Shown here one piece after another: positions 40,081 to 60,669 of a stretch of DNA of 64,000 bases; position 1 is the stretch's first letter; the number at the start of each line of letters is the position of its first letter. The translations under genes were made by a program, and so were the position numbers. The notes beneath the pieces are model-generated. The model was not told the DNA's origin and made no database searches. It was given only the letters and a program-made list of their open reading frames with translations. The stretch lies in the NCBI GenBank assembly GCA_965223425.1, contig OZ245003.1, forward strand, positions 1,472,001 to 1,536,000. The letters are read 5' to 3'. The stretch is from Nitrosopumilus sp. (GTDB lineage: Archaea > Thermoproteota > Nitrososphaeria > Nitrososphaerales > Nitrosopumilaceae).

Positions 40081-42342
40081 GTATGAATTCACCTACCCTG
40101 CCTAATCAAAAAATTTGATCATCTGATCCATATATTGCCTGTTTGCTACCATTTTCATGGGGTCAAGGCCGACAAACAGGGAACTTGAAGAGACCCTGCG
40201 TTCTGCCACAGACAGGATAGCAACACTCCAGTCAAAATTTAATGTACTGCTAGATAAAAACAAACAACAAGAAAGGGCCATCGAGTATTACCAGCGCATG
40301 TTATCATACTATCAAAATCCCAACACCCCGCCGTCTGCTGACTCGCTTGAATGGAAGAGGCAAAAGAGGGAGCGTGCACAGCAAAGAAAAGACGGGGAGG
40401 GCAACGACAACAATAGCGGCAAGCCCGGCGGCAGGACAGGACGCGCCGGAGTATCGCGGCATCACAGCCCGGAGAGAAGACAGCGGCACGACTTTGAGCG
40501 CAGGCAGTCAGGCAGAAGCATCACAAAAGTTCTTCCAAGATGCAGGTGCGGCAAGGCCATGGTTTTGGGCAACCCCCGCGTACGGGACATCATAGAGATG
40601 GAGGTCACCGCACACGAGACCCGCCACCGCATAGAGACTGCTGTCTGCGCGTCATGCGGCCATACAGAGGAGGCGCCAAACGGCGACCTGCCAAGACTCG
40701 GATCGTACGGCAAGAACGCGGTGGGGTTCGTCTCTGAGCTGCGCGCCGCCCGCGTCCCGCTCAAGATCATACCGCGCATCATACACTCTGTTGCCGGAGT
40801 CAGCATGTCTGCTTCCACTGCAAACAGCATCATGGCACGCACCGCAGACGCGCTGGAAGGCCAGGCATCTGAGATAGCAAAGAACGTGGCCAAATCAGAA
40901 AGCGCCGGGTTTGATGAGACCATGCATCGCGACTGCGGCATCAAAAAGCAGACAAACGTGGCCCAGTCAGGAAACAACATCTCAATACAGATCAGCTCAA
41001 GCAGGGCCACCCTGATGCTTGATTCGATGAACTATGACGGCATAGCGGTAACTGTAGTATGCACATAAAAAAACTGAATCATTTTGACAATTATTTTTGG
41101 CCAAAAGATCCAAGACCGGCCATACCGCACACACTGCATGTACAAACAAAAAAAGAGACAGGTTGCAAGGGGGGCAAAATTTCTGCCAAACACCAGCGTT
41201 GCAGACCTCAAAAGGGCATACAAAAAAGAGACCGATCCCAGAAGGCGCGACAGGCTGCTTGCGTACATGCAGCGCAAGGACGGCGTGCCGCTATACAGGA
41301 TTGGAAGGATGCTGGGAAGGCCCAAATCCACCATATCTGCATGGCTCAACCGCGCACAGGACGAGGGAATGCGCGCAAGATTCGAGCGCAGCGGCAGGGG
41401 ACGAAAGCACCTGATAGGCGGGCCGCAGGCAAGACAGCTTGCAGCAGACCTGGATGCGGGGCCAGAATCATGCGGCTTTGAGAGCAGCCTGTGGGATTCC
41501 AACCTCGCAAGGCTGCACATCAAGCGAAAGTTCGGCGTGCAGTACAGCAAGACAGGCGCGCTGCAACTGATCAAGGAGATGGGCTTTTCGTGGAGCAAGG
41601 CGCGTCCAAAAAACCCAAGATCAGCCTCAAAAAGAAAGCAAAAAGAGTTTCAGGAGCGGGCAAAAAAACTCGTTGCAGAAAAGTCGGCGCAGGGATACAC
41701 CGTACTGGCCGGCGATGCATCCTCGATTCAAAAGGCATCAAACAGGCCCGGCTACGGGTGGAGAAGGCGCGGCAAGCGCGCCACATCCCCCTCTGTTTTG
41801 TCACGCGAAAGAAGATACATTTGGAGTCCTGTCAGCAAGCGCGTTTTACTTTATGTTTTATGAAAAGCCAGACAGCGACAGCTTTTGCAGCTTTTTGGAA
41901 CGGGTTCACAAAAGATTCGGCAGGGTGCTGCTGTTTGTAGACAATGCGTCATATCACAAATCCAAAAAGGCAAGGGAGTTTCTGGAAAGATACAACGGCG
42001 AGACAGTTCTGGAATGCCTGCTGCCGTACACGCCGGAGCTTAATCCCATTGAGATGCAGTGGAGGGTGATAAAACGGGTACTGTCTGCAAAGGTGTTTGG
42101 CACGCTAGATGAGATGGAGCAGTCAGTACGCAAGCTGTTTGCCAGAAAGGAGATCCTGCCTGTGAAAATGTTCAATTATTTAATATGCTAACTACGGAAG
42201 ATAAGCGGGCAGACCAAGGGCGGCAGCAAGTCCATGAAGCGCCTGGGAGATTTTGTAAGCTGCGTCCTGACGTGGCAGAATCACGGCAAGAGCGTGGCGC
42301 AAGAGGTTGCCAGACTGATATAAGGGGCAGGTGAATTCATAC
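40081..42342 (+). mobile_element. IS66-family element disrupted by IS630 (sibling of 57633-59158)
   Basis: TIRs GTATGAATTCAC/GTGAATTCATAC; tnpC from 40157 truncated; no TSD. Confidence 0.9.
41055..42194 (+). mobile_element. IS630 element with frameshifted transposase
   Basis: Ends TAGTATGCAC/ATGCTAACTA; 2-bp deletion near 41820 relative to the intact copy. Confidence 0.9.
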
Positions 42343-42518
42343 GAACCAACAGACATGTAGACCCGTATGAGTCGTGTGGACAGGAAAAATGAATCCATGA
42401 CTTTGACGAGGATATGAGGACTCTACCAGTGTAACCGAGAGAAAAATATGAATCAAATTAACCCATAAATTTCAGATTTTGATATTGTTTTAAATCACAA
42501 CATTTCCTAGATTAACAT

Positions 42519-43442: not shown

Positions 43443-43445
43443 GTC

Positions 43446-44408
43446 ATGGCAGAACTTTACCACAGCCCGTTATTTGATCACATTAAAAATTATCTAGGGC
43501 GAAGCAGTTCGGATGAAACCATATTTCTTTTTGTTCCATATGTGAAGACAAAGGTGTTAGAGAGATTATTGGAAGGAATACAAAACAAGATAGTACTAGT
43601 CACAACATGGGAACCAAAGGATATCCAGTTTGGATCTTCGGAGCTTGCCTTGTATCTGTTCTGTCAAGAGCGAGACATTGCGTTGTATGTCAGCGAAAAC
43701 CTACACCTTAAGGTATACTCGATAGGATTGAACAATGCAATACTTACTACCGGGAATATATCTCACAGAGGACTGTTACCTGATGGCAACTACGAGGCCG
43801 GAATCATACTTGAGAATCTAACAAACAAGGACAGGTTGTTTTTTGAAAAGATACGAAAGAAGGCAAGATTAGTAGATGATACCATGTATGAGGAGCTCAA
43901 AAAATGGAGTGAAAAAAACAAAGTGGATTTGCCAGAACAGATCACACTCAAAGACGTCATCTCTGCACCAAAAAAGGATGACTTTTCTGTGGCCTCATTG
44001 CCAATGACTCGCAGTGTAGATGATCTGGTTTTAGGATACAAAAAAATCACATCTAATCAAGCACCATCCGATGATCCTGAAACGGTTGCATGCATATTTC
44101 ATGACTTGGCAAACTATGGCATATCATCTGGGCTTTCAGAATCAGAGTTTTTGCAAGGGCTGTCTTTGAAATTCTTTGCACATCCATTCATTCAAAAAAT
44201 TGATGAGTTTATAGCACCAGAGGCATACTTTGGAAGAATAAAGGAATGGGTTCAAGACAATTGTACTGACGTTCCGGTGCCAAGCAGACGTGAGCTGACA
44301 GGAAATGTTCAGGTGTTGTTTGAATGGTTTGAAGTTTTAGGAAATGGCAAGTATGGGATAGATGTTCCAGGTGCCAAATCCCAGCGTATTCGTAAAATTT
44401 TTCCTTAA
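43446..44408 (+). CDS. PLD-like (HKD) nuclease
   Basis: LHLKVY...TGNISHRG...NYEAG. Confidence 0.75.
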   Translation: MAELYHSPLFDHIKNYLGRSSSDETIFLFVPYVKTKVLERLLEGIQNKIVLVTTWEPKDIQFGSSELALYLFCQERDIALYVSENLHLKVYSIGLNNAILTTGNISHRGLLPDGNYEAGIILENLTNKDRLFFEKIRKKARLVDDTMYEELKKWSEKNKVDLPEQITLKDVISAPKKDDFSVASLPMTRSVDDLVLGYKKITSNQAPSDDPETVACIFHDLANYGISSGLSESEFLQGLSLKFFAHPFIQKIDEFIAPEAYFGRIKEWVQDNCTDVPVPSRRELTGNVQVLFEWFEVLGNGKYGIDVPGAKSQRIRKIFP

Positions 44409-44697
44409 AATATAGATATTCAAGAATATGATCTCAGATATTCTCTTTCGTAGAATTTTACTTATGCATCGATGATATAATCTAAATTTATTGTAGTGAC
44501 ACACAAAAGTTCTTCCATGTATCGAATTTTGCAAAACCATGATTACAGATTTCTCCGACCTGAATATTTTATAAGTGGCACAAGCAAGATCATATAAACC
44601 TGAATGAATTTTTGCGTGTCACTATAGTTTAAAAAAATAACCATAGGATGGTGAATGCTTCAACACATTAAATTACCTTCAAATTTTGATATAATCT

Positions 44698-47434
44698 GTG
44701 AAATTAGAAGATCTGCTTGTACGATTGGACATGCCATTATTAACTAAATTTCTAAGTAAATCAGTAATCGAAGTGTTAAATGTTCTTGATTCTGAAACAA
44801 TACGATTAAATCAACTCACTAAGTTGATACTTGATTCTATACCGGCATATACAATTTTGAATGAATCTGTAACACGCAATATTATAATTTATACTATGCA
44901 TGACGATGAAGCTGAAGAGTTTGCATCTTTTATAGGTATAAAAAAATGGGATAATATACATTACAAACTAATCAACACAAAATTCACAGAAGGAATACTA
45001 AAAAAATCATTAGAATTTTTTGGTAAAGAATATGAAGAAGATGAAAGTATTAATCGTGAAGATTATCATGAAATTGAGCCTGAAAGATTTCTTTTTCCAC
45101 ATCAAATATCTACCGTTAAACAAACTCAAGATCTCTTAAAACAATCTCCACATAAAGCGCTTTTACACATGCCCACTGGATCTGGAAAAACAATATCGGC
45201 CATGAGAATTGTCACTGCTCATTTATTAGAAAATCCATCAGCTTTGGTGATCTGGCTTGCGCATAATGAAGAACTATGTGAACAGGCCATGAATGAATTT
45301 CAGATCACATGGAAAAATGCAGGGGATAGAAAAATTGATGCTTATCGTTTTTTTGGATCAAGTAAATTAGATCCTCTATCTATTGAGAATGGATTTATGT
45401 CTGCAGGATTATTGAAAATGCTAGGATCTGCAAAAAAAAATAATACATTTTTAGCCAAACTTGCTCGTAAAACAAGTTTTGTTGTTATTGATGAAGCACA
45501 TCAGGCAATAGCAGAAAAATTTTCAATTATCGTAGAAGAATTAGCAGAAAATAAAAACACAAAACTGTTGGGACTTAGTGCTATAGTTAGCACATTAAAT
45601 AATTGAACATTTTCACAGGCAGGATCTCCTTTCTGGCAAACAGCTTGCGTACTGACTGCTCCATCTCATCTAGCGTGCCAAACACCTTTGCAGACAGTAC
45701 CCGTTTTATCACCCTCCACTGCATCTCAATGGGATTAAGCTCCGGCGTGTACGGCAGCAGGTACTCCAGAACTATCTCGCCGTTGTATCTTTCCAGAAAC
45801 TCCCTTACCTTTTTGGATTTGTGATATGACGCATTGTCTACAAACAGCAGCACCCTGCCGAATCTTTTGTGAACCCGTTCCAAAAAGTTGCAAAAGCTGT
45901 CGCTGTTTGACTTTTCATAAAACATAAAGTAAAATGCGTTTGCCGCCAAAGCTCCAAAGATGTATCTTCTTTCGCGTGACAAAACAGAGGGGGATGTGGC
46001 GCGCTTGCCGCGCCTTCTCCACCCGTAGCCGGGCCTGTTTGATGCCTTTTGAATCGAGGATGCATCGCCGGCCAGTACGGTGTATCCCTGCGCCGACTTT
46101 TCTGCAACGAGTTTTTTTGCCCGCTCCTGAAACTCTTTTTGCTTTCTTTTTGAGGCTGATCTTGGGTTTTTTGGACGCGCCTTGCTCCACGAAAAGCCCA
46201 TCTCCCTGACCAGCTGCAGCGCGCCTGTCTTGCTGTACTGCACGCCGAACTTTTTCTTGATGTGCAGCCTTACCAGGTTGGAATCCCACAGGCTGCTCTC
46301 AAAGCCGCATGATTCTGGCCCCGCATCCAGGTCTGCTGCAAGCTGTCTTGCCTGCGGCCCGCCTATCAGGTGCTTTCGTCCCCTGCCGCTGCGCTCGAAC
46401 CTTGCGCGTATTCCCTCGTCCTGTGCGCGGTTGAGCCATGCAGATATGGTGGACTTGGGCCTTCCCAGCATCCTTCCGATCCTGTCTAGCGGCACGCCGT
46501 CCTTGCGCTGCATGTACGCAAGCAGCCTGTCGCGCCTTCTGGGATCGGTCTCTTTTTTGTATGCCCTTTTGAGGTCTGCAACGCTGGTGTTTGGCAGAAA
46601 TTTTGCCCCCCTTGCAACCTGTCTCTTTTTTTGTTTGTACATGCAGTGTGTGCGGTATGGCCGGTCTTGGATCTTTTGGCCAAAAATAATTGTCAAAATG
46701 GTTCAGGTTTTTTATGTGCATACTATACTCCAGGACGCACGTCGGATTATATGGACTCAGCTAATAGACAACTTGCACAATTCTTTGCAAATCGTAAAAT
46801 AATGTTGGATACTGGAAAGAAGAATCCTGTTCTATTTCTTATTGAAAAAAAATATCTAGCAAATCCAATTTTTACTCCAATACGATATTTAAGCAATAAT
46901 TTATCAGATAAAGATATTCTCAAAATAGAAAAAGATCTAGATATACCATATTCAATATTGGAAAAATTATCTCATGATACAAAACGAAATTTATCAATTA
47001 TACAAGAAATAATGCGTCTTTCTAAAAAACACAAAAAAATAATTGTATTTGCATCTAGTGTTAAACATGCACGAAATATTTCATTAATATTATCTGCAAA
47101 AAAATATAATTCATATTATGTTGTTGGTAAGACACCTTCTAAAATACGAGCAAAAATACTAGATGATTACAAAAATATTGATAAAAGTATGATCTTGTGT
47201 AACTATGGCATATTGACGATGGGTTTTGATGCACCAAAAACATCTGCTGTAGTTATTGCTAGACCAACAAAATCTTATGTGCTTTATGCCCAGATGGTTG
47301 GGAGAGGAATACGAGGACCTGCAGCAGGAGGAAATGAGACATGTGAAATAGCAACAGTTATGGATGAAAGTATCAATGAATTTATTAATGTAACAAATAT
47401 CTTCACTCGATGGGAGAGAGCATGGAATGAATGA
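44698..47434 (+). pseudogene. SF2 (ResIII-like DEAH) helicase interrupted by IS630
   Basis: PHQ, MPTGSGKT, DEAH, LSA|TPGR, GFDAP, QMVGRG; removing the IS and one TA restores a 530-aa frame. Confidence 0.9.
45584..46725 (-). mobile_element. intact IS630 element (transposase ORF 45587-46696)
   Basis: Ends TAGTTAGCAC/GTGCATACTA; TA duplication at 45582-45583 and 46726-46727. Confidence 0.95.
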
Positions 47435-49226
47435 TAATAATGAGGACTACAATCTATTTTCAGGTGATAAATTTGTTGAATCATTACGTAGTGGTGGCTA
47501 CAAAAATACTTCATATGCAATAGCCGAATTAATTGATAATGGAATTGATGCAGAAGCAAAACATATTGAGATTTTATGTCAAGATGTAATCAATCATGTT
47601 ACAAATCGATATACATTAGATCAAATAGGAATTTTTGATGATGGTCATGGAATGAATCAAGAAGAACTTCGTCGTTCTCTTCTTTTTGGTAGTGGGAATC
47701 GAGGTATGAATTCTAAAGAAATAGGCAAATATGGCATGGGTCTACCAAATTCATCACTATCGCAATGCAAAAAAGTAGAAGTATATTCTTGGCAAAATTC
47801 TTCAGAGCCACTTTATAGTTACATTGATCTAGATAAAGTTAAGAAAGGAGATCGTCAAATCCCAAAACCAGAAATAAAAAAAATACCAAACATATGGAAA
47901 AAATCTTCAGAACATTTTTCAAAAAAATCTGGTACTCTTGTGGTATGGAGTCAATTAGATCGATGTTCGTGGACTACATCAAAAAAAATAATGGAGCATT
48001 CTGAATATTTAATTGGAAGATTATATCGAAAATTTATCACAAAAGATCTTGTAATCAATATGAAATCATTTGGAGTGAATAAAGAGGACATAGTCAACGA
48101 AAAATCAAGATCTATGCTCCCAAATGATCCATTATATCTTACAACACCTTCATCTACTCCCGGAGAATGGAGCAGAAAACCTATGTTCAAACCCGATGAA
48201 ACATTTGAAGAAGAACACCCAATAAATTATGATGGGGCGCAACATGTTGTAAAGGTACGATACTCACTCGTTAAAGATGAAGTACGTGATCCAAAAAATA
48301 ATACTGGTGATCCTGGCAGTACACCTCATGGTAAACATGCTCAGAAAAATGTTGGCGTATCTATCATACGGGCAGATAGAGAAATCGAGATGAATACTGA
48401 TTTAGTGATATCTTATGATCCAACAGAACGATGGTGGGGAGTTGAAATCAATTTACCTACTTCATTAGATTTGGCAGTAGGTTTAACAAACAACAAACAA
48501 CACACTATAATTCTTTCTGACATATTGTATTTGCTAAAGCGATTTATTGATGATGATGAAGGCCGTTCGCAAGTAGATGATGAGTTATTCGAACAGAATC
48601 CTACTCGCAGTGAATTACTTATAATGTGTCAAAAAATCGAAAGTCACATACGTTCAATGCGACGTAGGCTAAAGGCATCTAGGAGCGGTACACGTGGAGG
48701 AAGTTCTAAACCAAAGCTAGAGGATAAGATCAAAGGTGGATTTGATAGTGGACAGAATGTTGGCGAACATGGTCAAACCGAAGAAGACAGAAAGAAATTA
48801 AATGAAGCACAACGTGAATCGATGCTTGCAGACGGTTTAGTAAATGATGGAATCGAAGAAGAACAAGCTAGAAAAATTGCTGCTAGGTGGATTGCTGAAG
48901 ATAAGAAAGTAACATTCGATATAGCCGAACTTGATGGAAGTCAATTTTTCAGTGTTGAAAATATGGGAGGAATTTTGAGAATCAAAATAAATTCCAATCA
49001 TCGCGCATACAAAAATTTACTTTCAGTAACAGAATCTAATGAGCATGAAAATCTTGATTGTAAAAAACGTTTAGAATTAGCTAGAGATGGATTATGGTTA
49101 CTGCTTACATCTTGGGCACGATTTGAAGATTTAACAACAAACAAGGATCTGCGTGAAAAAATACAAGACATTAGAATTGATTGGGGAAAACAAATAAATC
49201 GATTTCTAGAACAAAACGAAGTTTAA
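47427..49226 (+). CDS. GHKL/MORC-like ATPase (HATPase_c_3)
   Basis: ELIDNGIDA, DDGHGM, GKYGMG and SGT motifs. Confidence 0.88.
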   Translation: MNDNNEDYNLFSGDKFVESLRSGGYKNTSYAIAELIDNGIDAEAKHIEILCQDVINHVTNRYTLDQIGIFDDGHGMNQEELRRSLLFGSGNRGMNSKEIGKYGMGLPNSSLSQCKKVEVYSWQNSSEPLYSYIDLDKVKKGDRQIPKPEIKKIPNIWKKSSEHFSKKSGTLVVWSQLDRCSWTTSKKIMEHSEYLIGRLYRKFITKDLVINMKSFGVNKEDIVNEKSRSMLPNDPLYLTTPSSTPGEWSRKPMFKPDETFEEEHPINYDGAQHVVKVRYSLVKDEVRDPKNNTGDPGSTPHGKHAQKNVGVSIIRADREIEMNTDLVISYDPTERWWGVEINLPTSLDLAVGLTNNKQHTIILSDILYLLKRFIDDDEGRSQVDDELFEQNPTRSELLIMCQKIESHIRSMRRRLKASRSGTRGGSSKPKLEDKIKGGFDSGQNVGEHGQTEEDRKKLNEAQRESMLADGLVNDGIEEEQARKIAARWIAEDKKVTFDIAELDGSQFFSVENMGGILRIKINSNHRAYKNLLSVTESNEHENLDCKKRLELARDGLWLLLTSWARFEDLTTNKDLREKIQDIRIDWGKQINRFLEQNEV

Positions 49227-49244
49227 TGTACAATTATTCATTTT

Positions 49245-50084
49245 CTATAAATGACAAACAGTACAAGGCGTTGATTCATCCTCATCATCCAATGCATCTG
49301 CAAGTACATCAACTAATGGCAGATTTTTTCTCTTCGCTTTAGCTTTTTTGAGTTTATCCTCATGATTTTTCATTATCTCATCTCGTCTCTCTAGCAGTTC
49401 AGTCAATGTTTCGCCCTGTGACCATGTATACTGCCTTCCTTTCATGCCACTTGATTTAAAATCTGCATCACCTGCAACTCCGGCATCTTTGAGTATCTTT
49501 TGTTCAATTGCAACTGCACGCTTGAACAAGTCTGGGTGATTGTCTGCAAGACCAACCCATTCTGCTTTACGTTGAAAGAAACAAAAGTAACATCCGGAAC
49601 GTGTCCTCCACTTGTAATATTCTGGAAGATTAATTCCTGTATCTTCCAGAATCTTTACAACTCCAGTATGATCAATGTCATCGTCAATGAATGGGAATAC
49701 GGTCTTTATGTTGGGTTTTGTAGAGACATAACCTGTTCTACTCTTCTCATCTGCACGAATAGCCACATAGGATATTACCTCATCATCTCCAATCCAGTCC
49801 TCAAGTGGTTTTATCTTTAACATGCTAGTGCACCATCTCATCTGTGGTGATGGTAGTGTACCTCGAAACACCTCAAAGTAATGATCAAAGCTTCTAGTAG
49901 AGTTTAGCTTGATTATCGGTTTGCCAAGAACGACTTCAAGTTTTGCAAGATACGCATAGGTCTCTGGAAGCTCGGCCCCAGTATCACAAAAGAAATACTC
50001 CATGTCTGGAATCCTATCTCGCATGTAGACGGCAAGTGCGCTAGAATCTTTGCCGCCAGATATACCGCAAACATTGCGTGCCAT
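49245..50084 (-). CDS. sspD: PAPS-reductase-family protein, SspD-like
   Basis: SGGKDS, DTG, RWCT..LK and RSGCYFC motifs; lies in the DUF4007 cluster. Confidence 0.8.
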   Translation of the reverse strand: MARNVCGISGGKDSSALAVYMRDRIPDMEYFFCDTGAELPETYAYLAKLEVVLGKPIIKLNSTRSFDHYFEVFRGTLPSPQMRWCTSMLKIKPLEDWIGDDEVISYVAIRADEKSRTGYVSTKPNIKTVFPFIDDDIDHTGVVKILEDTGINLPEYYKWRTRSGCYFCFFQRKAEWVGLADNHPDLFKRAVAIEQKILKDAGVAGDADFKSSGMKGRQYTWSQGETLTELLERRDEIMKNHEDKLKKAKAKRKNLPLVDVLADALDDEDESTPCTVCHL

Positions 50085-50353
50085 GATTATAACATCAGAT
50101 CTAAGCATATAACTATTCATATTAGAAAGCACCAGAACTTAAAATACTTGAATGATCTTAAAACCAAATAAACTATCAAATATAATTCCACATCACATAT
50201 TTGAAGAACATAAAAAAGTGGCACCATGTATTTCTTTGATCATAAAGGATGATAGTCAGATAGCTGACATTATGGTAAGAAAAAAAGAAGGTAGTCAGAA
50301 ACATTATTCTCTGGCTATAGAAACAAATGACTAGCAAAGTAAAACCGAATCTG

Positions 50354-50521
50354 TTACTTTATCTTTACAGCCAGTTTGTCAAATTCTTTCTTTGAGACAG
50401 TAAGACAAAACAATACCTTGTCAGGCTTTTTTGCATTTTTTATCATTGGATAGAATTTGATTACATACATGCCGTCTTTTTTTGTGACTTCATATGGCCT
50501 CTCGCCGATCTTTTCTCGCAT
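50354..50521 (-). CDS. small basic hypothetical protein (55 aa, absent from ORF track)
   Basis: MREKIGERPYEVTKKDG...KIK. Confidence 0.45.
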   Translation of the reverse strand: MREKIGERPYEVTKKDGMYVIKFYPMIKNAKKPDKVLFCLTVSKKEFDKLAVKIK

Positions 50522-50691
50522 TTGATAGTTTAAGCAAAATATGATCTTATAGGTTTATCTGCCATTATACAAGATCTTAAAATTTACGCACGAATCTTAT
50601 TATATTTGTATGACGTATTATGATTAGCCGTAATTGAATCCTCTGAACTAACAGTGTTGGTGTCAGGGGCCGTGCAGTTACGGCCATTCTA

Positions 50692-51270
50692 TCATTTGAA
50701 ATCATGTCTTAGCTTTGTTTCAATTGCATCTGTTACATCCATTGAAATTACTCCATCAGGTTCACGCCCTCGATTGTTCCCCCACGCAACAAGATCAGAT
50801 AATATGTATGCATAATCCTTATCACCATGATGCAGACCATTATTTTGTACAAAACCTCTGCAATCGGTATCACACTCAAAAACAATATCCGATAAAGTAT
50901 AATTATGCTTAATAGTAAATTCTAAGATTTTTTCACGTACGTGTTGTAATAACAGATAGTTATACACAGAAAGAATCTTTATGTGAGGAATATGTGGCTG
51001 TCTTTTATGTGCTAATTTTTTGGTATCTTTAATTATTCTGTCTCGGTCAATTCTTACACAAAACGCTATATTCTCTTTACCATTGAATTGAAGTTGAGAA
51101 GTAAGATCACTTCGAACTTTTGTTAGTTTTATTTGATTGACTGTAAATTGTTTTATGTCCAATTGCTTAATCATAGAATTAATACTATCCTTTGTACCAA
51201 TCACAATTCCCATATATTTATAATTTCCAACATCCGGATGTCCTGATACATCGATTCCTGCAACAAGCAT
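50692..51270 (-). CDS. DUF3800-like RNase H-fold protein
   Basis: N-terminal IDVSG, central ECD, C-terminal LSDLVAW. Confidence 0.55.
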   Translation of the reverse strand: MLVAGIDVSGHPDVGNYKYMGIVIGTKDSINSMIKQLDIKQFTVNQIKLTKVRSDLTSQLQFNGKENIAFCVRIDRDRIIKDTKKLAHKRQPHIPHIKILSVYNYLLLQHVREKILEFTIKHNYTLSDIVFECDTDCRGFVQNNGLHHGDKDYAYILSDLVAWGNNRGREPDGVISMDVTDAIETKLRHDFK

Positions 51271-51275
51271 GTTTT

Positions 51276-54200
51276 TTACTTTGTAGTTTTAGAACTCAAT
51301 ATTGCAATCAATGCACTCATATCTTTATCTTTGAATCCTTTCTTTTTGATCATTTTAATTATATCTTGAACAATTATTTGCATCTCTTCTTTTTGTTTAG
51401 GTCTTAATGATACGACGTTGTGATGCTCACGGCCATCCGCATGTGTCACTGTCACCTGATATGATGGTTTTACAAAATTATCAGATATATCAGAAAAGTG
51501 TATGGATGCAAGTCTCTTGAATTTTCTAGACATTTCAATTAGATTGTTCTTAAACATTTTACGGTCATCATCCTTCCAAGACATCATTGGTACATCAGTT
51601 AGACTTAGGGCAACATAGTTTATCCAGTCCTCGTCTTTTTCTAACACATCTGATGACAGTGCTGTAAGAAATACTTTCATTTTTTGATCAGATACGCTTT
51701 GTAGCATAACTGATGCAGTCTTTGATAACTTGTTCCTCTCATCAATTCCGGTGCTAACCAAAAGTAGTTCTTTGATATCCTCAATGGTACGAAGGAATTT
51801 GTTTTGGAGTCTTGTTTTTGATTTGACAAGGGTTTTTGAGAATTTTTCAATATCAGATACAGATGCATGAGCCAGATCAAACTTTAATGCCTTTGGAAGT
51901 GATTCAAACAACAAGGTATCCGGTTCTATTGCATTTTGGACAGCATCCCTGACTGCAAGTGAATCTTTGTCTAAATCCTTTGTTTGTTTCACATATGGTG
52001 AAAGTGCAGAAACAATTCTGACAAGATGTGATACGACATCCAAGACACTGCCTTTGGAATTTATTTCAAAGTCAGATATTACTGTCTTTAGCAGTCTCTT
52101 TTTGGATGGTGTACTCTTGAAATATTTTACCTCAAAATGATCCGGATTCTTTATCATTCTCTCTGCAATCTCCGTCATCATATATGGAACGTATGTGCCG
52201 TGTTCGTATAACGCAATGTTGTGTTTGTGTATCAAGAGAATCGCAACCATGAATATTGCTAAAACCCCATCTTTGACTCCAAATGGGGGAAGTCTACATA
52301 CACGATATATTGCAGATATCGGGACTCGTTTGTTGGATTTTGTAATTTCATCTATCATTGCACTCCATGCTGGCTTGATTTCAGGATTTTTTGGTTCCTG
52401 CAATTCCCAATCATTACCGATGGTACCTACATGAATTCCATACTGAATGAATATTGCATCATAGACTGCTCTGTCAGGTCCGTAACCTTCTAGACCAAAA
52501 TTGGGTTTGTCTGTATGGTTTATCATATACTCTAATAATTTTCTTTTTGCAGCAGATCCTTGTGATGATAAGACTGTTCTGTTTATCATCTCGTTGTGTA
52601 TCGGAGGCGTCTTATCGTATACATCATCACAGATTTTAGAGACAATTGCACTAGGAGTACCTGATTGTTTTGCGGGCCTGTCTTTAAGATAAGACCATTC
52701 TGCCTTACTGCCATATGTAGTGCCAAACTCTCTATCTAGAATTATCTCCGCATCTGCTAATCGCTCTTCTAGCTCTCTGCGTGCTACCCAGTCAGATATA
52801 ACATCCTCACTGTTATTCAAAATGTCACGAATTGCCATTACCTCGATTGCAGCATGTTTTAGATCCGACGTATCCCCAGCAGTTACTGTAACGACTGGCT
52901 TGTCGCACTTGAACTGTACAGAATTTCCAGTATTGTGTATTATTATTCCATCATAGCTATCATCCAGATTTATCTGCGGTGTGATTGTAAAGCTTCTCTC
53001 AAATAGCCTCATGGTGCCAGTCTTTATACTGTGTTTTGCTGCCACAACTGGTTCTAAACTTATTACCTCTTGTAGCATGTCTGCTAGATGCGATTTTGCA
53101 TATCTCTTGCGATACATGATAAGCTTTGCTGCAATGTCAATGTCCGTGCCATGCCATATCCTGTATTCATCTGCATATTTTCTGTATGTGATGATTGATT
53201 TTTTCTCCAATTTATGGAGTATCTGTGCTGCAGAATATCCGATTGCGTAGTTTAGGATCTTGCGTGATGCTCTAAGATAGCCTGATCTTCCAATCAGATT
53301 TAGTATTCCAATTGTCTTAAGCGTCTTTATCTCCAAGCTGCTCAATCCGTGGGAATCTCGAATTATGGTTTCAATCTCCATCAGTCTAGTTATGTTCTGA
53401 GAGCTAGAATGAATCATACTAGTACCAGAGATAAAATGATCATACAATACATCGATTCCCATTGTGGGCGGAGATTGCGTATTCCACGAATTATTATCAA
53501 TAAATGTAGCAACCGTATGTTTGCTTGCATCTGAGATAAATGACAAGAGCGTCCTCTCATGCTGTCCGTACCTAGAGCAGAGCTCCGGCAGGACTTCAAG
53601 TGCAAGCGACCCTAATGGATAGCATGATGCAATTAGATTAGAATCAGAACTGCTATCGATGCCAAGATCCTGCATCTGCCGTGCTTCTTTTTTTGCCCAT
53701 TTTTTGACATCTCTACCGTATTCCTCCAAGTTTAGATGCATGGTATTTGATATCAGTAGTCTAGCCTGATCCGGCGAGTTTGCAAATGGAATATCCTCAA
53801 AGCGTCCCTGGATCTTTGCCCATTCCTTCTTTTGTGTAATTGATGCCCCCACCGCATATTCTTCAAAGGCCATGTGCTGTAGTGTGATGATGAATAACGG
53901 AATCTTTCTGCCCGGACCCGACATCTCTGCAAGCGCTTGCAGTAAAAATAGATCACTTTGTTGTGTCTCATCTGTTGTAAAATATTCAATGTTTTTGCCA
54001 AATTCATCAATCATGATTACCATCGGGGCAGATTTACACATATCCACTATGATCTCTGTTATTATTTTTGTAGATGGGGTCTTGTTATTTTGTAAATCCT
54101 TTATCTTTTGATGCAAAATGTTTGCCTGAGAAAAGTCCTTCTTTGAATATCTTCCAAAATATTTCCTTGCACCTTCATCGAGCGCACGAAGTATGGTTGC

Positions 54201-54620
54201 AGTTATTGGTTCACGACCTGCAGTTATTGCACATCTAATCAGACCTTTGTTGTGGGTATTTGATTTTTCTCTTGCTTGTACAAAAATATCTGCAACCGTG
54301 TATGATTCTTTTTTTAATATGGAATATGTTGCTTTCCATTCGGTATCATTTTTGCTACAAAACAAACTGTTTAGAAATATTGCCATCGTTGATTTGCCAG
54401 AACCGTATGGTCCTGTAATGGATAACATCCTACCACTTTTAGCACCTCTAAGACCAGCTGAAAAACGCTCAATGATCTCTAACGTACTTGCACTAGGAAG
54501 ATAGTTCTTTAGTGTTGTAATGTCATCATTTTCTATATTTGTAGATACATATGACTTTGGTGGAATTGAGACAATACGAGATAATGGAATTGGTTTTCTG
54601 TTTTGTAAAGATGACTTCAA
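51276..54620 (-). CDS. sspC: large P-loop ATPase, SspC-like
   Basis: GPYGSGKS, IDEFGK, EWAKIQGRF, YGQHERTL and PPFGVK; overlaps the DUF4007 gene. Confidence 0.82.
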   Translation of the reverse strand: MKSSLQNRKPIPLSRIVSIPPKSYVSTNIENDDITTLKNYLPSASTLEIIERFSAGLRGAKSGRMLSITGPYGSGKSTMAIFLNSLFCSKNDTEWKATYSILKKESYTVADIFVQAREKSNTHNKGLIRCAITAGREPITATILRALDEGARKYFGRYSKKDFSQANILHQKIKDLQNNKTPSTKIITEIIVDMCKSAPMVIMIDEFGKNIEYFTTDETQQSDLFLLQALAEMSGPGRKIPLFIITLQHMAFEEYAVGASITQKKEWAKIQGRFEDIPFANSPDQARLLISNTMHLNLEEYGRDVKKWAKKEARQMQDLGIDSSSDSNLIASCYPLGSLALEVLPELCSRYGQHERTLLSFISDASKHTVATFIDNNSWNTQSPPTMGIDVLYDHFISGTSMIHSSSQNITRLMEIETIIRDSHGLSSLEIKTLKTIGILNLIGRSGYLRASRKILNYAIGYSAAQILHKLEKKSIITYRKYADEYRIWHGTDIDIAAKLIMYRKRYAKSHLADMLQEVISLEPVVAAKHSIKTGTMRLFERSFTITPQINLDDSYDGIIIHNTGNSVQFKCDKPVVTVTAGDTSDLKHAAIEVMAIRDILNNSEDVISDWVARRELEERLADAEIILDREFGTTYGSKAEWSYLKDRPAKQSGTPSAIVSKICDDVYDKTPPIHNEMINRTVLSSQGSAAKRKLLEYMINHTDKPNFGLEGYGPDRAVYDAIFIQYGIHVGTIGNDWELQEPKNPEIKPAWSAMIDEITKSNKRVPISAIYRVCRLPPFGVKDGVLAIFMVAILLIHKHNIALYEHGTYVPYMMTEIAERMIKNPDHFEVKYFKSTPSKKRLLKTVISDFEINSKGSVLDVVSHLVRIVSALSPYVKQTKDLDKDSLAVRDAVQNAIEPDTLLFESLPKALKFDLAHASVSDIEKFSKTLVKSKTRLQNKFLRTIEDIKELLLVSTGIDERNKLSKTASVMLQSVSDQKMKVFLTALSSDVLEKDEDWINYVALSLTDVPMMSWKDDDRKMFKNNLIEMSRKFKRLASIHFSDISDNFVKPSYQVTVTHADGREHHNVVSLRPKQKEEMQIIVQDIIKMIKKKGFKDKDMSALIAILSSKTTK

Positions 54621-55567
54621 TGTGTTAATGCCTCTACTTTTTGTTTTAATTTTCTTACAGGTTTTTTGTATATCAGGGAGAGTATTTCCATGGATGTATC
54701 TTGAGCCGAATCAAACATCAGGTGCTGCGTGCCGTTGACATTATCAATCTTTATCAAATTACAGTGATCAGATGCCTCTCTTAGCATCTCTGCAATATCG
54801 TTTTCGCCTATCTTGAAGATATTGCCAACGCTGCCGGGCTCTGTTGCCAGCCTGCTTACTGATACACTTTTTGATGTTATTTTGGCCTTGTCAATAAAGT
54901 CTAGGCACGCAAATGCGACCATTAGTGGTGAGAGCCCGTATTTTTTGCCAAATACAAACCGCATCATGTCCTTGGAGATCTGCTTTACCATGTGAAGCTG
55001 TCTGAACGGACAATCTAGATAATCCTCCATTGACATCTTGGCCTGTTTGGTGGTGTATGTGTGTATGAATACATCAATATCTTTTTTGATGGATTTTGGG
55101 CTAGGTGTCTTCCATTCAGATATGTTTGTAATGCGTGATATGACAGACTCTGTAACGTCATCAATCTTGATGTTTGTTGCTGCAAACTCGTTCATAACTA
55201 TCCACCATACTGGAATGCTACATGGTGGGGCAAAAAGCAGCCAGTGCAAGAGCCACAGTGTATCAGGCTTTTCAAGATATGGATCAAGACCTTTGTTGCT
55301 AAATATGGCATGTCCCATATCTGTTGGTATCATCGTCATGTTTTTGCCAGTACCACTTGCAGTAATTATCTTGTTTGCCATTGCCCAGAATCTTATTGCA
55401 CGAACCATATTCTTGCCAACCCCTAGCTTGATTGTAGCATTATCATGCAAAAAGATGCGACCATCTACGTTTATCTGATTGTATGCCTTTTTGAGCCAAC
55501 CATATCTGAGATGAAATGTTTCATGATGTGAAAATATTGGCGTTGTTACGGCATCAGTAATTAACAT
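54617..55567 (-). CDS. sspB: DUF4007 protein, SspB-like
   Basis: HETFHLRYGWLKK, LGVGKNMVRAIRFW and DPYLE..TLWLLHW motifs. Confidence 0.88.
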   Translation of the reverse strand: MLITDAVTTPIFSHHETFHLRYGWLKKAYNQINVDGRIFLHDNATIKLGVGKNMVRAIRFWAMANKIITASGTGKNMTMIPTDMGHAIFSNKGLDPYLEKPDTLWLLHWLLFAPPCSIPVWWIVMNEFAATNIKIDDVTESVISRITNISEWKTPSPKSIKKDIDVFIHTYTTKQAKMSMEDYLDCPFRQLHMVKQISKDMMRFVFGKKYGLSPLMVAFACLDFIDKAKITSKSVSVSRLATEPGSVGNIFKIGENDIAEMLREASDHCNLIKIDNVNGTQHLMFDSAQDTSMEILSLIYKKPVRKLKQKVEALTH

Positions 55568-56733
55568 TATCTTGCACTCTCTTTAATTTCAGATTCTTTA
55601 CCTCTTACATACTGTACAGCTTTGGTAATTACATCTATCGCAATATTCATATCGTTTTGTGTTGTTTGACGGCCAATCGATATGCGAATGCATTCATTTG
55701 CCTCATCTGTATTCAATCCCATTGCAATCAACACATGCGATGGTTCCATTGTAGCAGACGAACAAGCACTTCCTGTTGAAATTTCTATTTTCGGCGCATT
55801 TGCAATTACAGCATCTGCAAGAGCGCCTTTTATTCTAATGTTTGATGTGTTTGGCAAACGATTTGCATTTTTGCCGTTGATTGTTACATCTGGAATATTT
55901 TTGGTAATATTTTCTTCAAAGTAATCTCTGAGATTTTGTTGCAGTACCGCATCATCTTCTTGTTTGTTTATTGCGATATCGCAGGCTTTACCAAATCCCA
56001 CTATTCCCGGAACGTTTAGTGTTCCACTGCGCATGTTGTTTTCTTGCCCGCCACCATAAAGAATTCCCCGCATCTGTTTTCGGGCATCTCTTGTGGCAAC
56101 AAGTGCACCGCATCCCTTTGGACCATAAATTTTATGGCTACTAAACGTCATAAAATCAATATCAAGTTCTCCCGCATCAAAAGGAATTTTTCCAATGGCT
56201 TGTGTGGCATCACAGTGAATTAGTGCATTATGCGCATGTACTTTTTGCACGATTTCTTTAATTGGATGAATTACACCAGTTTCACTGTTTGCTGCCATAA
56301 CTGATACAATATCTGTATGTCCGTTAAGCAATTCCTTGTCTAATTCATAAAGATCAAGTGTGCCATCACGGTTGACCGGAATCTTTTTGACTACTGCACC
56401 CTGTTCTGACATAAATCTGCACGGCTCTAAGACAGATTTGTGTTCTGTGGCCCCAATTATAGTGCATAATGGTTTTTTCTGATTGAGGGATAACCCATAA
56501 AAGACCATGTTGTTTGCCTCAGTAGCTCCGGATGTAAATATGACATCTGCTGGTTTCATGCCGACAATGTTTGAGACACGATAGCGTGCCTCTGCTACTA
56601 GCTCTGATGCAATTCGTCCTGTTTCATGATTCCCACTTGACGGGTTTCCAAAATTTTTATCAAATACAGGAGTCATTGATTCGATGACACGCCGATCTGT
56701 TGGGGTAGTGGCATTATAATCTAGATAAGGCAT
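55567..56733 (-). CDS. sspA: cysteine desulfurase (SspA/IscS-like)
   Basis: YLDYNATTP, SSHKIYGPKG, RSGT and GSACSS; coupled to DUF4007. Confidence 0.88.
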   Translation of the reverse strand: MPYLDYNATTPTDRRVIESMTPVFDKNFGNPSSGNHETGRIASELVAEARYRVSNIVGMKPADVIFTSGATEANNMVFYGLSLNQKKPLCTIIGATEHKSVLEPCRFMSEQGAVVKKIPVNRDGTLDLYELDKELLNGHTDIVSVMAANSETGVIHPIKEIVQKVHAHNALIHCDATQAIGKIPFDAGELDIDFMTFSSHKIYGPKGCGALVATRDARKQMRGILYGGGQENNMRSGTLNVPGIVGFGKACDIAINKQEDDAVLQQNLRDYFEENITKNIPDVTINGKNANRLPNTSNIRIKGALADAVIANAPKIEISTGSACSSATMEPSHVLIAMGLNTDEANECIRISIGRQTTQNDMNIAIDVITKAVQYVRGKESEIKESAR

Positions 56734-57189
56734 CCGTTATCAATTGATAATTGCCGATATTTTACACTTCGGTTAGATTAGAATTATACGGATAATCAAC
56801 CCTAGATCAAAGATCCTCTTGTTGTAATGTGGCAAAGATTTAAGGTTCGAACTTGTACCCTCAGTACGGGCAGATCTGATCGCATTCTGTCCACACTTTA
56901 TGCCACATCCTTATATCATGTTGCAGTGCAAGTACCAACAGAACATAATGGTAGGTCACAGAAAAATGTGGTCTGCTAACTGTATGACATTAATCCCTGC
57001 TAGTTCACATTTTAACGGTCTAATGAGGTTTCTAGTCTGTTTCATAACTCTTCCCCCACGGGTGTCTGATCCCACAGTATAACTTGGCAGTAATCAAGAC
57101 TGACTACGGTTTTACATGAACTTTTAGTCACACGCCTAAACTAGATACACATTTGAAAAATGGTTTTAGTTTTATGTCAAAAATTAATT

Positions 57190-57603
57190 TTAAGACAAAG
57201 ACTCAGAGACATCAGATTCAATAATATTTTTCATGGAAACAATCATTTCTCCGATTTCAGATATCCTTTGATCAAATTGATCATCGGTTAGTTCATCAGG
57301 CTTGTTCAAAGTGATTACAACTTCAGAAAAATCACCACTAGTTACTACACGCATAGGAACGTTCCAAGAAGATTCTTCGTCAACATACTGGTGATCTAAG
57401 ATTCCAAGATTTTTGTTTTCGTTAAATTTGAGGCGTGATTTACCGTGAGGACCAGTAAAAGACCACCAGCCATCGTCACCTTGTTTTGCATCAGGCATCA
57501 TTTTGGGAGGAACCTGTAAAATTGCATCAAATGCATCACCTGTTTTCTTTTTTACAACAATGGAAATGGTTCTAGATCTAGTCACAATAAAAAGATCAAA
57601 CAA
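57190..57603 (-). CDS. SRPBCC-like hypothetical protein
   Basis: LGILDH...VPMRVV pattern; start uncertain. Confidence 0.6.
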   Translation of the reverse strand: MFDLFIVTRSRTISIVVKKKTGDAFDAILQVPPKMMPDAKQGDDGWWSFTGPHGKSRLKFNENKNLGILDHQYVDEESSWNVPMRVVTSGDFSEVVITLNKPDELTDDQFDQRISEIGEMIVSMKNIIESDVSESLS

Positions 57604-57632
57604 TGATTAAAAAAGATATAGTAGCAATCATC

Positions 57633-59158
57633 GTATGAATTCACCTACCCTGCCTAATCAAAAAATTTGATCATCTGATCCATATATTGCCTGTTTGCTA
57701 CCATTTTCATGGGGTCAAGGCCGACAAACAGGGAACTTGAAGAGACCCTGCGTTCTGCTACAGACAGGATAGCAACACTCCAGTCAAAATTTAATGTACT
57801 GCTAGATAAAAACAAACAACAAGAAAGGGCCATCGAGTATTACCAGCGCATGTTATCATACTATCAAAATCCCAACACCCCGCCGTCTGCTGACTCGCTT
57901 GAATGGAAGAGGCAAAAGAGGGAGCGTGCACAGCAAAGAAAAGACGGGGAGGGCAACGACAACAACAACGGCAAGCCCGGCGGCAGGACAGGGCACGCCG
58001 GAGTATCGCGGCATCACAGCCCACAGAGAAGACAGCGGCACGACTTTGAGCGCAGACAATCAGGCAGAAGCACCAAAAGAATCCTTCCAAGATGCAGGTG
58101 CGGCAAGGCCATGGTTTTGGGCGACCCCCGCGTACGGGACATCATCGAGATGGAGGTCACCGCACACGAGACCCGCCACCGCATAGAGACTGCAGTCTGC
58201 ACGTCGTGCGGCCATACAGAGGAGGCGCCAAACGGCGACCTGCCAAGACTCGGATCGTACGGCAAGAAGATGGCAGGGTTTGTCTCTGAGCTGCGCGCCG
58301 CCCGCGTCCCGCTCAAGGTCATACCGCGCATCATACACTCTGTTGCCAGAGTCAGCATGTCTGCCTCCACTGCAAACAGCATCATGGCACGCACCGCAGA
58401 CGCGCTGGAAGGCCAGGCATCTGAGATAGCAAAGAACGTGGCCAAATCAGAAAGCGCCGGGTTTGATGAGACCATGCATCGCGACTGCGGCACCAAAAAG
58501 CAGACGAACGTGGCCCAGTCCGGGAAAAACATCTCGATACAGATCAGCCCAAGCAGGGCCACCCTGATGCTTGATTCGATGGACTATGACGGCATAGCGG
58601 TAACTGACGCATACAGGGGGTACGACAGGTTCAATGCAGAGGACAGACACCAGCTGTGCTGGTCGCACGACATACGCAAGGCAAAAACCCTGGCAGAAAA
58701 ATACGATCCCCTCTTGGATGACGGCAGGCGGAAAAAACGGCGGCAGTACCTCGAGGACCTGCGGTTTGTGTTCAAGGAGGCAAAACACGTCGCACGGCTG
58801 GGGGCGCACTCGCGGAGGCAGCGGCACGTCATGGAGGACACCCTGGCAGACGTTCTTGACCGGTACTGCGGCACGGATGATGCAGACCTGCACAAGCTTG
58901 TCATGATGATGTACCGGCACCTTCCGCACCTGTTTACGTTTGTCCAGTACGCCGGGGTGGAGCCGACTAACAACGCATCAGAGAGGGCGCTGCGCTATAT
59001 GGTGGTGTTCCGGAAGATAAGCGGGCAGACCAAGGGCGGCAGCAAGTCCATGAAGCGCCTAGGAGATTTTGTAAGCTGCGTCCTGACGTGGCAGAATCAC
59101 GGCAAGAGCGTGGCGCAAGAGGTTGCCAGACTGATATAAGGGGCAGGTGAACTCATAC
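57633..59158 (+). mobile_element. intact IS66-family element (single TnpC, 57709-59139)
   Basis: TIRs GTATGAATTCAC/GTGAACTCATAC; 8-bp TSD CAATCATC; DET, QLCWSH and PTNNASER motifs. Confidence 0.95.
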
Positions 59159-60552: not shown

Positions 60553-60587
60553 AATAATTTGAGATTTGGCGTCATAAATGAATGAAG

Positions 60588-60669
60588 CGCCGGGAGAGAG
60601 ATTCGAACTCCCGCACGCTTGCGCGTAGCCGTTTTCGAGACGGCCGCCTTACCACTTGGCTATCCCGGC
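60588..60669 (-). tRNA. tRNA-Ser(CGA)
   Basis: GCCGGGA acceptor stem, GCCGT-CTCGAAA-ACGGC anticodon arm, long variable arm, GTTCGAATC T-loop. Confidence 0.95.

Follow-up and report, generated by a model that had tools for sequence, protein, structure and literature searches.

A predicted SspABCD phosphorothioation operon in Nitrosopumilus and the putative restriction arm beside it

The stretch of DNA analyzed here (the window) comprises 64,000 nucleotides of a Nitrosopumilus sp. genome (GenBank assembly GCA_965223425.1, contig OZ245003.1, positions 1,472,001 to 1,536,000) and carries a predicted operon for DNA phosphorothioation (PT) of the SspABCD type. Directly beside it lie genes for an SF2 helicase, a MORC-like GHKL ATPase, and a nuclease of the PLD (HKD) type, referred to below as the trio, together with a gene for an AlbA-domain protein. 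Do these neighbors serve as the restriction partner of the PT operon? On balance, we lean toward the explanation that they do, that is, that a complete SspABCD operon is joined by a helicase/GHKL/PLD/AlbA arm that would restrict DNA by reading its PT status and that appears to have been inactivated here by an insertion sequence (IS). The linkage of the trio to PT genes spans archaea and bacteria, and the cluster is probably not an orphan.

The SspABCD operon and its two additional genes

Four open reading frames (ORFs) on the minus strand encode a cysteine desulfurase, a DUF4007 protein, a large ATPase, and a PAPS reductase-like enzyme (Table 1), intact and placed as the original prediction had described them from the letters alone. 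The overlaps of sspA with sspB (1 base) and of sspB with sspC (4 bases) indicate that these three genes are coupled. All four proteins are full length compared with their homologues, and all four fall within the Ssp families, as evidenced by Pfam and by the PADLOC models for SspA, SspB, SspC, and SspD. SspA, which also matches the DndA model of PADLOC (E 2e-131), aligns its pyridoxal phosphate lysine (SSHK) and catalytic cysteine (GSACSS) with those of solved IscS. The Pfam DUF4007 domain covers 288/288 profile positions in SspB, and this protein matches the solved SspB structure 6juf (E 1e-48). SspC contains a Walker A motif (GPYGSGKS) at residue 70 and a Walker B-like motif (VIMIDE) at residue 201. 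In SspD, whose length is counted from a GTG codon and whose real start may lie further in, the PP-loop (SGGKDS) is at residue 25, and CxxC occurs twice (residues 181 and 290); the alignment of SspD with its PADLOC model spans 276 of 277 positions. The Ssp models outscored the BREX and Dnd models in PADLOC for SspC (E 2e-295 over the full length, versus 7e-100 for BrxC) and for SspD (E 7e-110, versus 9e-14 for BrxP and 5e-6 for DndC). NCBIfam yielded no family above its cut-off for SspB, SspC, or SspD. Judged from their sequences, these genes form a genuine, intact SspABCD-type PT module, whose products are predicted to modify DNA.

Two conserved genes between sspC and sspD, encoding proteins of 192 amino acids (X192) and 55 amino acids, were overlooked by the original prediction, which was right about SspABCD and incomplete about the content of the module. 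We compared 16 archaeal Ssp loci, namely the window, a second island of the same genome (L003), and the 14 archaeal loci among the 15 closest SspC loci. All counts of neighbors are lower bounds since some of these loci stop at contig ends. Homologues of X192 follow sspC in 10 of the 16, and the 55-amino-acid gene is found beside ssp in 8, with amino acid identities of 56-96% in the 7 loci other than the window. Neither profile matched anything in the 8 bacterial Ssp loci searched.

X192 has no family in Pfam, PADLOC, or NCBIfam, and its relatives are few (47 clusters among 5.8 billion proteins, none named). Its structural model (pLDDT of 92, pTM 0.89) had RNase HII/HIII as top fold matches. 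Foldseek retrieved RNase HII at E 2.5e-4 with a probability of 1.0, and comparison with RNase HIII and HII gave VIA Z scores of 8.0 and 7.7 over ∼139 residues (root mean square deviation [rmsd] of 3.9 over 139 residues for the Z of 8.0). In the family alignment, D134, D136, and D159 are invariant, and D8 is retained in every full-length row. The model thus points to an RNase H-like fold for X192, with scores of intermediate strength, and likeness of fold does not demonstrate function. Searched against the sequences of solved structures, the X192 profile yielded chance-level rows only, with haemagglutinin HA2 (E 0.024) at the top. An assignment to DUF3800, suggested by a single Atlas cluster with this family in 15% of its members, was rejected: Pfam PF12686 matched only one of nine X192 members, at E 8.1. 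At two loci (L007 and L010), X192 is broken or truncated and ssp is intact.

For the 55-amino-acid protein, no Pfam family was found at E values up to 1, apart from a chance-level match to 3HBD (E 0.06), and no NCBIfam family scored above cut-off. A remnant of an SspE-like gene in the gap between X192 and sspD was rejected: tblastn with the GmrSD-like protein of the second island returned nothing in the window, and this conserved small gene occupies the gap. On plasmid A of Crocosphaera subtropica (L038, 8808-11948), five consecutive hypothetical genes of ∼155-230 amino acids stand between sspC and sspD, and none of them matched the X192 profile.

Table 1. Features of the island and its surroundings in window coordinates (aa, amino acids)
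Feature	Position	Strand	Support or remark
sspA, cysteine desulfurase, 388 aa	55567..56733	-	Pfam Aminotran_5 E 9e-80; PADLOC SspA E 1e-133
sspB, DUF4007 DNA-binding/nicking subunit, 316 aa	54617..55567	-	Pfam DUF4007 E 3e-83; PADLOC SspB E 1e-90
sspC, BrxC-like large ATPase, 1114 aa	51276..54620	-	PADLOC SspC PDLC02781 E 2e-295
X192, conserved gene, predicted RNase H-like fold, 192 aa	50692-51270	-	Begins 5 bases after sspC
Conserved small gene between X192 and sspD, 55 aa	50354-50521	-	Relatives in other archaeal Ssp loci
sspD, PAPS-reductase-like PP-loop enzyme, 295 aa	49245..50132	-	Pfam PAPS_reduct E 7e-10; PADLOC SspD E 7e-110
MORC-like GHKL ATPase, 599 aa	47427..49226	+	Pfam HATPase_c_3 E 9e-24
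SF2 helicase, 3' part (motifs III to VI)	46728..47434	+	Pfam Helicase_C E 3e-14
IS630-family IS inside helicase gene, 1142 bp	45584..46725	-	DDE_3 transposase 45587-46696; Pfam DDE_3 and HTH domains
SF2 helicase, 5' part (N-terminal domain; motifs Q, I, II; cut in motif III)	44698..45583	+	Pfam ResIII E 4e-20, DEAD E 3e-13
Predicted nuclease of PLD(HKD) type, winged-helix array at C terminus, 320 aa	43446..44408	+	Weak PLDc_2, conserved motif, model
DUF2196 (YwbE) and Schlafen AlbA_2 protein, 307 aa	42519..43442	+	Pfam DUF2196 E 2e-25, SLFN_AlbA_2 E 1e-10
IS66-family element, bounds island on its other side, same orientation as right-hand copy; split by IS630 copy 41055-42194	40081..42342	+	blastn, Pfam
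IS66-family element, bounds island on sspA side	57633..59158	+	Pfam DDE_Tnp_IS66 E 1e-27
ORF without family upstream of sspA, just within right-hand IS66 copy, 137 aa	57190-57603	-	
tRNA-Ser (CGA), 1.4 kb beyond right-hand IS66	60587-60669	-	Rfam (sole Rfam find)

The helicase, GHKL, PLD, and AlbA genes beside sspD

The AlbA, PLD, helicase, and GHKL genes lie on the plus strand, convergent with sspD. In the GHKL protein, the N-box (E34, D37, N38), the G1 box (D71xGxG), and the G2 box (G100xxGxG) are invariant in 10 homologues. Its nearest solved relatives are MORC2/3/4 (MORC2, E 8.5e-13), and it is 38.5-40% identical to GHKL genes that adjoin ssp on cyanobacterial plasmids. The helicase gene, whose 3' end overlaps the start of the GHKL gene by 8 bases, keeps MPTGSGKT and DEAH and is broken, according to the alignment, between LGLSA and TPGR; motifs Q, I, II, III, and VI are present in intact homologues. 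Its 3' part is 63% identical to the C-terminal half of the intact homologue at locus L011, and the two halves weakly match the PADLOC model of PbeA (E 1e-12 and 1e-6).

The PLD protein is weakly recognized by Pfam (PLDc_2, E 0.031; E 0.0011 for its paralogue), and its residues H87, K89, T102, and N104 (HxK...TxN) are invariant. Residues 4-154 of its structural model (pLDDT 68) match the PLD nucleases SauUSI (Z 9.4), Nuc (Z 8.2), and BfiI (Z 7.9), with SauUSI (PDB 7clg) as the best fold match of the domain (rmsd 2.9 over 132 residues). Residues 175-320 match winged-helix arrays found in N.BspD6I, FokI, BrxA, and SspB (Z 5.7-7.1). Profile-profile comparison of the PLD protein with SspB (hhalign) gave a probability of 0.3%, so the C-terminal likeness to SspB (Z 5.7) is at the level of fold only. 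The PLD profile found nothing better than E 0.13 among the sequences of solved structures, and at E 3e-23 it matched a gene of Trichormus annotated by NCBI as "phospholipase D family protein." Catalytic motifs are retained in the helicase, GHKL, and PLD families. YwbE was the one family above the NCBIfam cut-off for the AlbA protein; none was found for the GHKL, helicase, or PLD protein or for the GmrSD-like protein of the second island.

Is the arm of the window still active? The IS630 element sits in motif III of the helicase and is bordered by TA duplications at 45582-83 and 46726-27. Removal of the element and one TA in silico restored an open helicase frame of 530 amino acids. The genome contains 26 further full-length copies with identities of 92-99%; these 27 copies are a large IS burden in an archaeal genome of 2.6 Mb. 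One contig from an independent public sequencing run and study bridges the right junction of the element under a 31-letter rule, and three other contigs extend 14-30 letters into it. No contig in four public runs skips the element, and since contigs drop rare variants, a minority of cells may keep an intact allele. Because the insertion splits the helicase in motif III, the helicase/GHKL/PLD arm of the window is probably dead or inactive. The Ssp cluster, which the original prediction had described as having no sspE, is thus not evidently without a partner: a module that is likely a restriction arm directly adjoins it, broken by the IS.

Linkage of the trio to phosphorothioation genes and history of the island

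Among 72,556 plasmid records, 62 carry a relative of SspC (60 of them listed) and 18 carry a relative of the GHKL protein of the window. On 11 of these 18 GHKL-positive plasmids there is also a listed SspC match, 3-13 kb away. Ssp genes stand next to the GHKL gene on 13 of the 18, in an examination that covered all but the five most distant GHKL matches. By annotation, SspABCD or SspBCD adjoins GHKL on Roseobacter and Aminobacter plasmids. Pannonibacter carries, on one strand, sspB, sspC, sspD, a DEAD/DEAH helicase, an "ATP-binding protein" (GHKL), and a "phospholipase D family protein," in this order. Trichormus variabilis has the trio between sspD/"DndB" and sspA, with identities to the window proteins of 38.5% for GHKL (E 2e-123), 45% for the C-terminal half of the helicase, and 26% for PLD (E 1e-18). 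In both bacteria, the trio is found inside the ssp operon, on the same strand and separated by short gaps. Plasmids of Agrobacterium and Hymenobacter are of the canonical SspFGH type, with two hypothetical genes and an FtsK/SpoIIIE gene after sspD.

A similar pattern was observed in archaea. The GHKL and helicase pair is located beside ssp in 11 of the 16 archaeal loci, the PLD protein in 8, a GmrSD-like gene in 7, and the AlbA protein in 6. When we searched 300 other Nitrosopumilaceae genomes, 15 had both SspC and GHKL, 5 had SspC only, 4 had GHKL only, and 276 had neither. In 12 of the 15 genomes with both genes, SspC and GHKL share a contig at a distance of 1.6-12 kb; the remaining 3 have them on separate small contigs. 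Three of the four genomes with GHKL only carry the trio directly beside DndA-DndD-DndC-DndB; in the fourth, sspD and a GmrSD-like gene are its neighbors. The trio also accompanies a divergent Ssp cluster of another SspC subfamily in a genus mate (L026).

Some individual loci show rearrangement or decay. At L022 (G088:C1:583000-602999), the PLD, GHKL, and helicase genes adjoin an sspD of 85% identity and a GmrSD-like gene, with no sspA, sspB, or sspC within 20 kb; ORFs of 1623 and 582 amino acids without a PADLOC family adjoin the trio there. The sspC gene of L018 (10001-13652) is in two pieces on opposite strands, and stops interrupt sspB, sspC, and the GHKL gene of L009 (genome G339).

The genome of the window itself contains further PT genes, and the Ssp cluster is no rarity in this genome or its lineage. 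The second Ssp island (L003, G000:C1:488001-508000) lies outside the window. Comparison of the two islands revealed identities of 74% for SspA, 66% for SspB, 75% for SspC, 41% for X192, 91% for SspD, 76% for PLD, 53% for AlbA, 27% for GHKL, and about 32% for the helicase. In L003, the helicase and the trio as a whole are intact, and the gene order is reversed, GHKL preceding the helicase. Between sspD and the 55-amino-acid gene it carries a gene for a 593-amino-acid GmrSD-like protein (HEC-06-type, DUF262/DUF1524); an HNH protein of 499 amino acids is also encoded. The 593-amino-acid protein matches the HEC-06 and Orf5 models over its own full length (E 5e-70) and SspE over the first ∼100 residues only. 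The only GmrSD_N match of the genome, at C1:496087, is outside the window. Three Dnd-type clusters (L033-L035; G000:C1:827466-833490, 874468-881876, and 1630752-1636729 of the 2.64-Mb genome) carry DndB-C-D-E-A, with no match for DndE in the third. After one of them come PbeA (E 2e-188), PbeC, and a gene of the HNH type, and another adjoins DrmB, DrmC, and a DrmA fragment of DISARM. This archaeal genome thus holds five PT clusters, two Ssp islands and three of the Dnd type.

The distribution of SspC in related organisms is patchy. We found it in 2 of 36 other genomes of the genus and in 20 of 300 other genomes of the family, where it is concentrated in seven genera. In a sample of the phylum, the SspC model PDLC02781 matched in 7 of 56 genomes of the family and in none of 344 genomes from 60 other families. 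Records of Nitrosopumilus, Nitrosopumilaceae, or Cenarchaeum account for 14 of the 15 closest SspC loci, consistent with the thaumarchaeal host that had been proposed from the sequence.

We then asked about the history of these genes. A maximum likelihood tree of SspC (LG+G4, SH-aLRT support, midpoint root) was built from 24 sequences, 15 archaeal and 9 bacterial; it leaves out four broken or cut copies (L006, L012, L018, and L036), and uneven amino acid composition was flagged. Fourteen archaeal sequences form one clade (support of 100) that is sister to a sequence from the actinobacterial Candidatus Poriferisodalis and then to cyanobacterial ones, and the divergent SspC of the genus mate groups with alphaproteobacterial sequences. 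The archaeal label needs two changes on this tree, and the direction of transfer is unproven without a root. On it, the window SspC is paired with the copy of a different organism (79% identity) rather than with its own paralogue. A GHKL tree of 20 sequences places the window protein in a clade with all four bacterial sequences, and the paralogue of the second island in a clade of archaeal sequences only, the Dnd-linked copies among them. The patchy distribution, the position of the clade among bacterial sequences, and the flanking IS elements support a history of horizontal mobility for the Ssp cluster. This part of the horizontal acquisition suggested by the original prediction therefore stands; a recent import from bacteria does not, since the best bacterial identity found for the window SspC is 31-32%.

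The island proper (42343-57632) is enclosed by two IS66 copies and has a G+C content of 0.38, versus 0.41 for the chromosome. The right-hand copy has terminal inverted repeats and an 8-bp target duplication (CAATCATC). The left copy, 96-99% identical to it by blastn, has no target duplication at its ends. A composite transposon built from these two co-oriented elements is unproven, as the right copy has a duplication of its own and the left copy has none. An attachment repeat derived from the tRNA gene was rejected, as no meaningful repeat of ≥13 bases was found.

Elsewhere in the window, two inverted copies of an IS110-family transposase gene (28518-29672, plus strand, and 30167-31321, minus strand; 384 amino acids each) lie ∼500 bp apart with equal Pfam scores. 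A 574-amino-acid SWI2/SNF2 helicase (23877-25601, minus strand) resembles ZorD, in the helicase part of the latter (E 6e-74), as well as DpdE (E 1e-59), and no other Zorya or Dpd gene was found among the ORFs scanned. A Prok-JAB deubiquitinase-like gene (37297-37704, minus strand) adjoins the gene for a 426-amino-acid protein (37736-39016, minus strand), possibly as a defense-related pair; the latter protein has no family and gave only faint LmuB and coiled-coil matches.

Relation to known systems, alternative explanations, and significance

The cluster has neither SspE nor SspFGH as its partner and does not belong to BREX type 4. A PADLOC scan of 60 ORFs of the window revealed no DUF262/DUF1524 (SspE-type) protein, no BrxL, and no match to PbeC or DndD, and Pfam found no FtsK-type domain in any neighbor of the cluster. 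PglZ (PF08665) had no match in the whole genome, in a search whose control was positive in two named genomes. These results agree with the original prediction, which had recognized no SspE, PglZ, or BrxL and had set BREX type 4 aside.

How does the cluster compare with systems already described? The SspABCD-SspE system is reportedly that of Vibrio cyclitrophicus FF75 as well as Escherichia coli 3234/A, in work said to be by Xiong and colleagues in 2020. The window shares its four modification proteins, with full-length PADLOC Ssp matches, but lacks SspE, has an archaeal host, and has two extra conserved genes in the operon. SauUSI, a type IV restriction enzyme that depends on ATP and cuts modified DNA, likewise has a PLD nuclease, an SF2 helicase, and a domain that reads DNA, all in one polypeptide. 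In the window, the parts are spread over three genes, with a GHKL ATPase in addition.

SspABCD-SspFGH has been described in Vibrio anguillarum FF-93 (PMC8092258). Like the window, it has a multigene, ATPase-containing arm beside sspBCD, proposed to attack unmarked DNA; unlike it, the arm of the window has no FtsK-like protein and is built from other folds, those of a helicase (SF2), an ATPase (GHKL), and a nuclease (PLD). DndCDEA-PbeABCD of Haloterrigena jeotgali is an archaeal PT system in which the Dnd proteins are accompanied by PbeA, a fusion of HKD and SF2 parts (PMC6459918, PMC10853773). It resembles the window in its archaeal host and in an arm with an HKD nuclease and a ResIII/SF2 helicase, and the window helicase weakly matches PbeA. 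However, PbeA joins the HKD nuclease and the helicase and works with the CxC ABC ATPase PbeC and the DndE-like PbeD, whereas in the window separate genes encode the nuclease and the helicase, a GHKL protein is the ATPase, and the modification set is Ssp. MORC/paraMORC GHKL ATPases have been predicted to act with SFII helicases and HKD or other nucleases in restriction-modification (R-M) operons (Iyer, Abhiman, and Aravind, 2008; PMC2292703). The trio shares with these operons a GHKL protein with intact ATP motifs, a Rad25-like SFII helicase, and an HKD nuclease; the operons of that account are linked to DNA methylases, whereas here the link is to phosphorothioation (Ssp and Dnd). HEC-06 is a GmrSD-like defense protein (bioRxiv 2024.01.29.577857). 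For sponge-associated Thaumarchaeota, the accessible text of two papers reports dnd genes and "low-similarity dndA, B, C" with DUF262/DUF1524 and does not name Ssp (PMC6790972, PMC7848895). We found no publication on PT or Ssp genes paired with a helicase-GHKL-PLD trio, in a search whose scope most subscription journals lie beyond. The SspABCD module is thus of a known kind that recurs in an archaeal family, and the conserved arm is probably undescribed.

By analogy with the characterized bacterial system, SspA would remove sulfur from cysteine, SspB (a winged-helix array) would locate and nick the target motif, SspC (an ORC/Cdc6- or BrxC-like ATPase) would power scanning, and SspD (a PP-loop enzyme) would activate the backbone and insert the sulfur. 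The other half of the island, an SF2 (Rad25/ResIII-like) helicase translationally coupled to the MORC-like GHKL protein, the PLD nuclease with its FokI/SspB-like array, and the DUF2196-AlbA_2 protein, would substitute for SspE or SspFGH and read PT status. The winged-helix nuclease may choose the sites, while the helicase and a GHKL clamp may translocate or loop the DNA until cutting of unmarked DNA is licensed; the arm may instead sense PT. After the recent IS630 insertion, the locus would still mark DNA and would have lost restriction through its own arm.

We consider a broader reading to be evenly balanced between true and false. It holds that the trio is a third, unnamed restriction arm of PT systems, present in archaea and bacteria, with Ssp and with Dnd, and about as common beside ssp as SspE or SspFGH. 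To this, the Nitrosopumilaceae would add a private RNase H-fold nuclease and the 55-amino-acid protein, and the genome studied here would run up to five PT systems.

Several observations weigh against the helicase/GHKL/PLD/AlbA genes as the arm of the Ssp operon, and some of them favor an orphan Ssp module that marks DNA for epigenetic, redox, or other purposes, with the trio and AlbA gene as a separate MORC-type R-M or SauUSI-like system that merely shares the island. Defense genes cluster for other reasons, and adjacency cannot prove partnership. The 300 family genomes are kin, and a two-by-two table of SspC and GHKL overstates their independence. The PLD model is of low confidence, Foldseek found no match for it at E ≤0.001, and BfiI ranked ninth with a probability of 0.98. 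Between the two islands, PLD is 76% identical but GHKL only 27% and the helicase ∼32%, unlike the tight coevolution of one complex. Five of the 20 SspC-positive family genomes lack a GHKL gene, the GHKL and helicase pair at L027 lacks PT genes in the 20 kb examined, cassette type and orientation vary between loci, and the window island lies among other defense-like genes. An orphan state is also common: among 2,678 bacterial sspBCD clusters, sspFGH accompanies 7.3% and sspE 7.4%, and neither is nearby in 83.9% (2,211) according to one survey (PMC8092258). Against an orphan module, however, the trio stands beside two unrelated kinds of PT genes, Ssp and Dnd, and beside two SspC subfamilies. The linkage recurs in two domains of life, with the trio within the ssp operon in Pannonibacter and Trichormus, and 13 of 18 GHKL plasmids have adjacent ssp genes although SspC is present on only 62 of 72,556 plasmids. 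These data make an orphan module with a separate neighbor rather improbable.

One might also suppose that X192, rather than the trio, is the partner, either as a nuclease that stands in for SspE on a small scale or as an extra nicking or processing subunit, the trio being irrelevant. Its place immediately after sspC on the same strand, which recurs at most of the archaeal loci, its confident RNase HII/HIII-like model with conserved aspartates, and its small family without annotation would fit such a role, as would its fast evolution (41% identity between the islands, versus 75% for SspC), which is often seen in defense effectors. But the fold and its middling scores show no function, the glutamate of the RNase HII DEDD set is not conserved at the corresponding place, X192 is absent from 6 of the 16 archaeal loci and from all 8 bacterial loci searched by profile, and it is broken or truncated at two loci where ssp is intact. 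We therefore regard X192 as an unlikely partner. It is very unlikely that the whole locus, modification included, is a nonfunctional remnant decaying in an IS-ridden genome. The 27 full-length IS630 copies, the IS elements that flank the island and split the helicase, the stops at L009, and the redundancy of five PT clusters, which could permit loss, are in keeping with decay, but the six genes of the ssp operon all retain their full length and intact catalytic motifs, SspD is 91% identical to its paralogue, and identities of up to 99% to other IS630 copies indicate that the helicase was hit recently. A type 4 BREX system with overlooked effector genes is scarcely credible. The window does share homologous BrxC/SspC, PAPS reductase, and DUF4007 parts with type 4 BREX, and SspC and SspD match BrxC and BrxP at the E values given above; the Ssp models nonetheless score far higher (981 versus 333 bits and 365 versus 49 bits, respectively), DUF4007 and PAPS reductase are separate genes, and neither BrxL in the window nor PglZ in the genome was found, while one account of type 4 BREX has PglZ retained in all 457 taxa analyzed (PMC12839542).

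Taken alone, the window has a more modest meaning: a standard SspABCD module with two additional small genes and a probable partner arm broken by an IS. According to the literature, most sspBCD clusters have no known restriction partner, a gap that a conserved helicase/GHKL/PLD arm beside Ssp and Dnd genes in two domains of life would, if true, partly fill. The same arm would connect the reading of a mark on the DNA backbone with MORC-type ATPases, which are related to eukaryotic chromatin silencers, and the compact bacterial operons make the arm directly testable. For the ammonia-oxidizing archaea, whose viruses and defenses are poorly known, these data suggest that Ssp PT islands are recurrent in some genera, pass from genome to genome, and undergo remodeling by IS elements.

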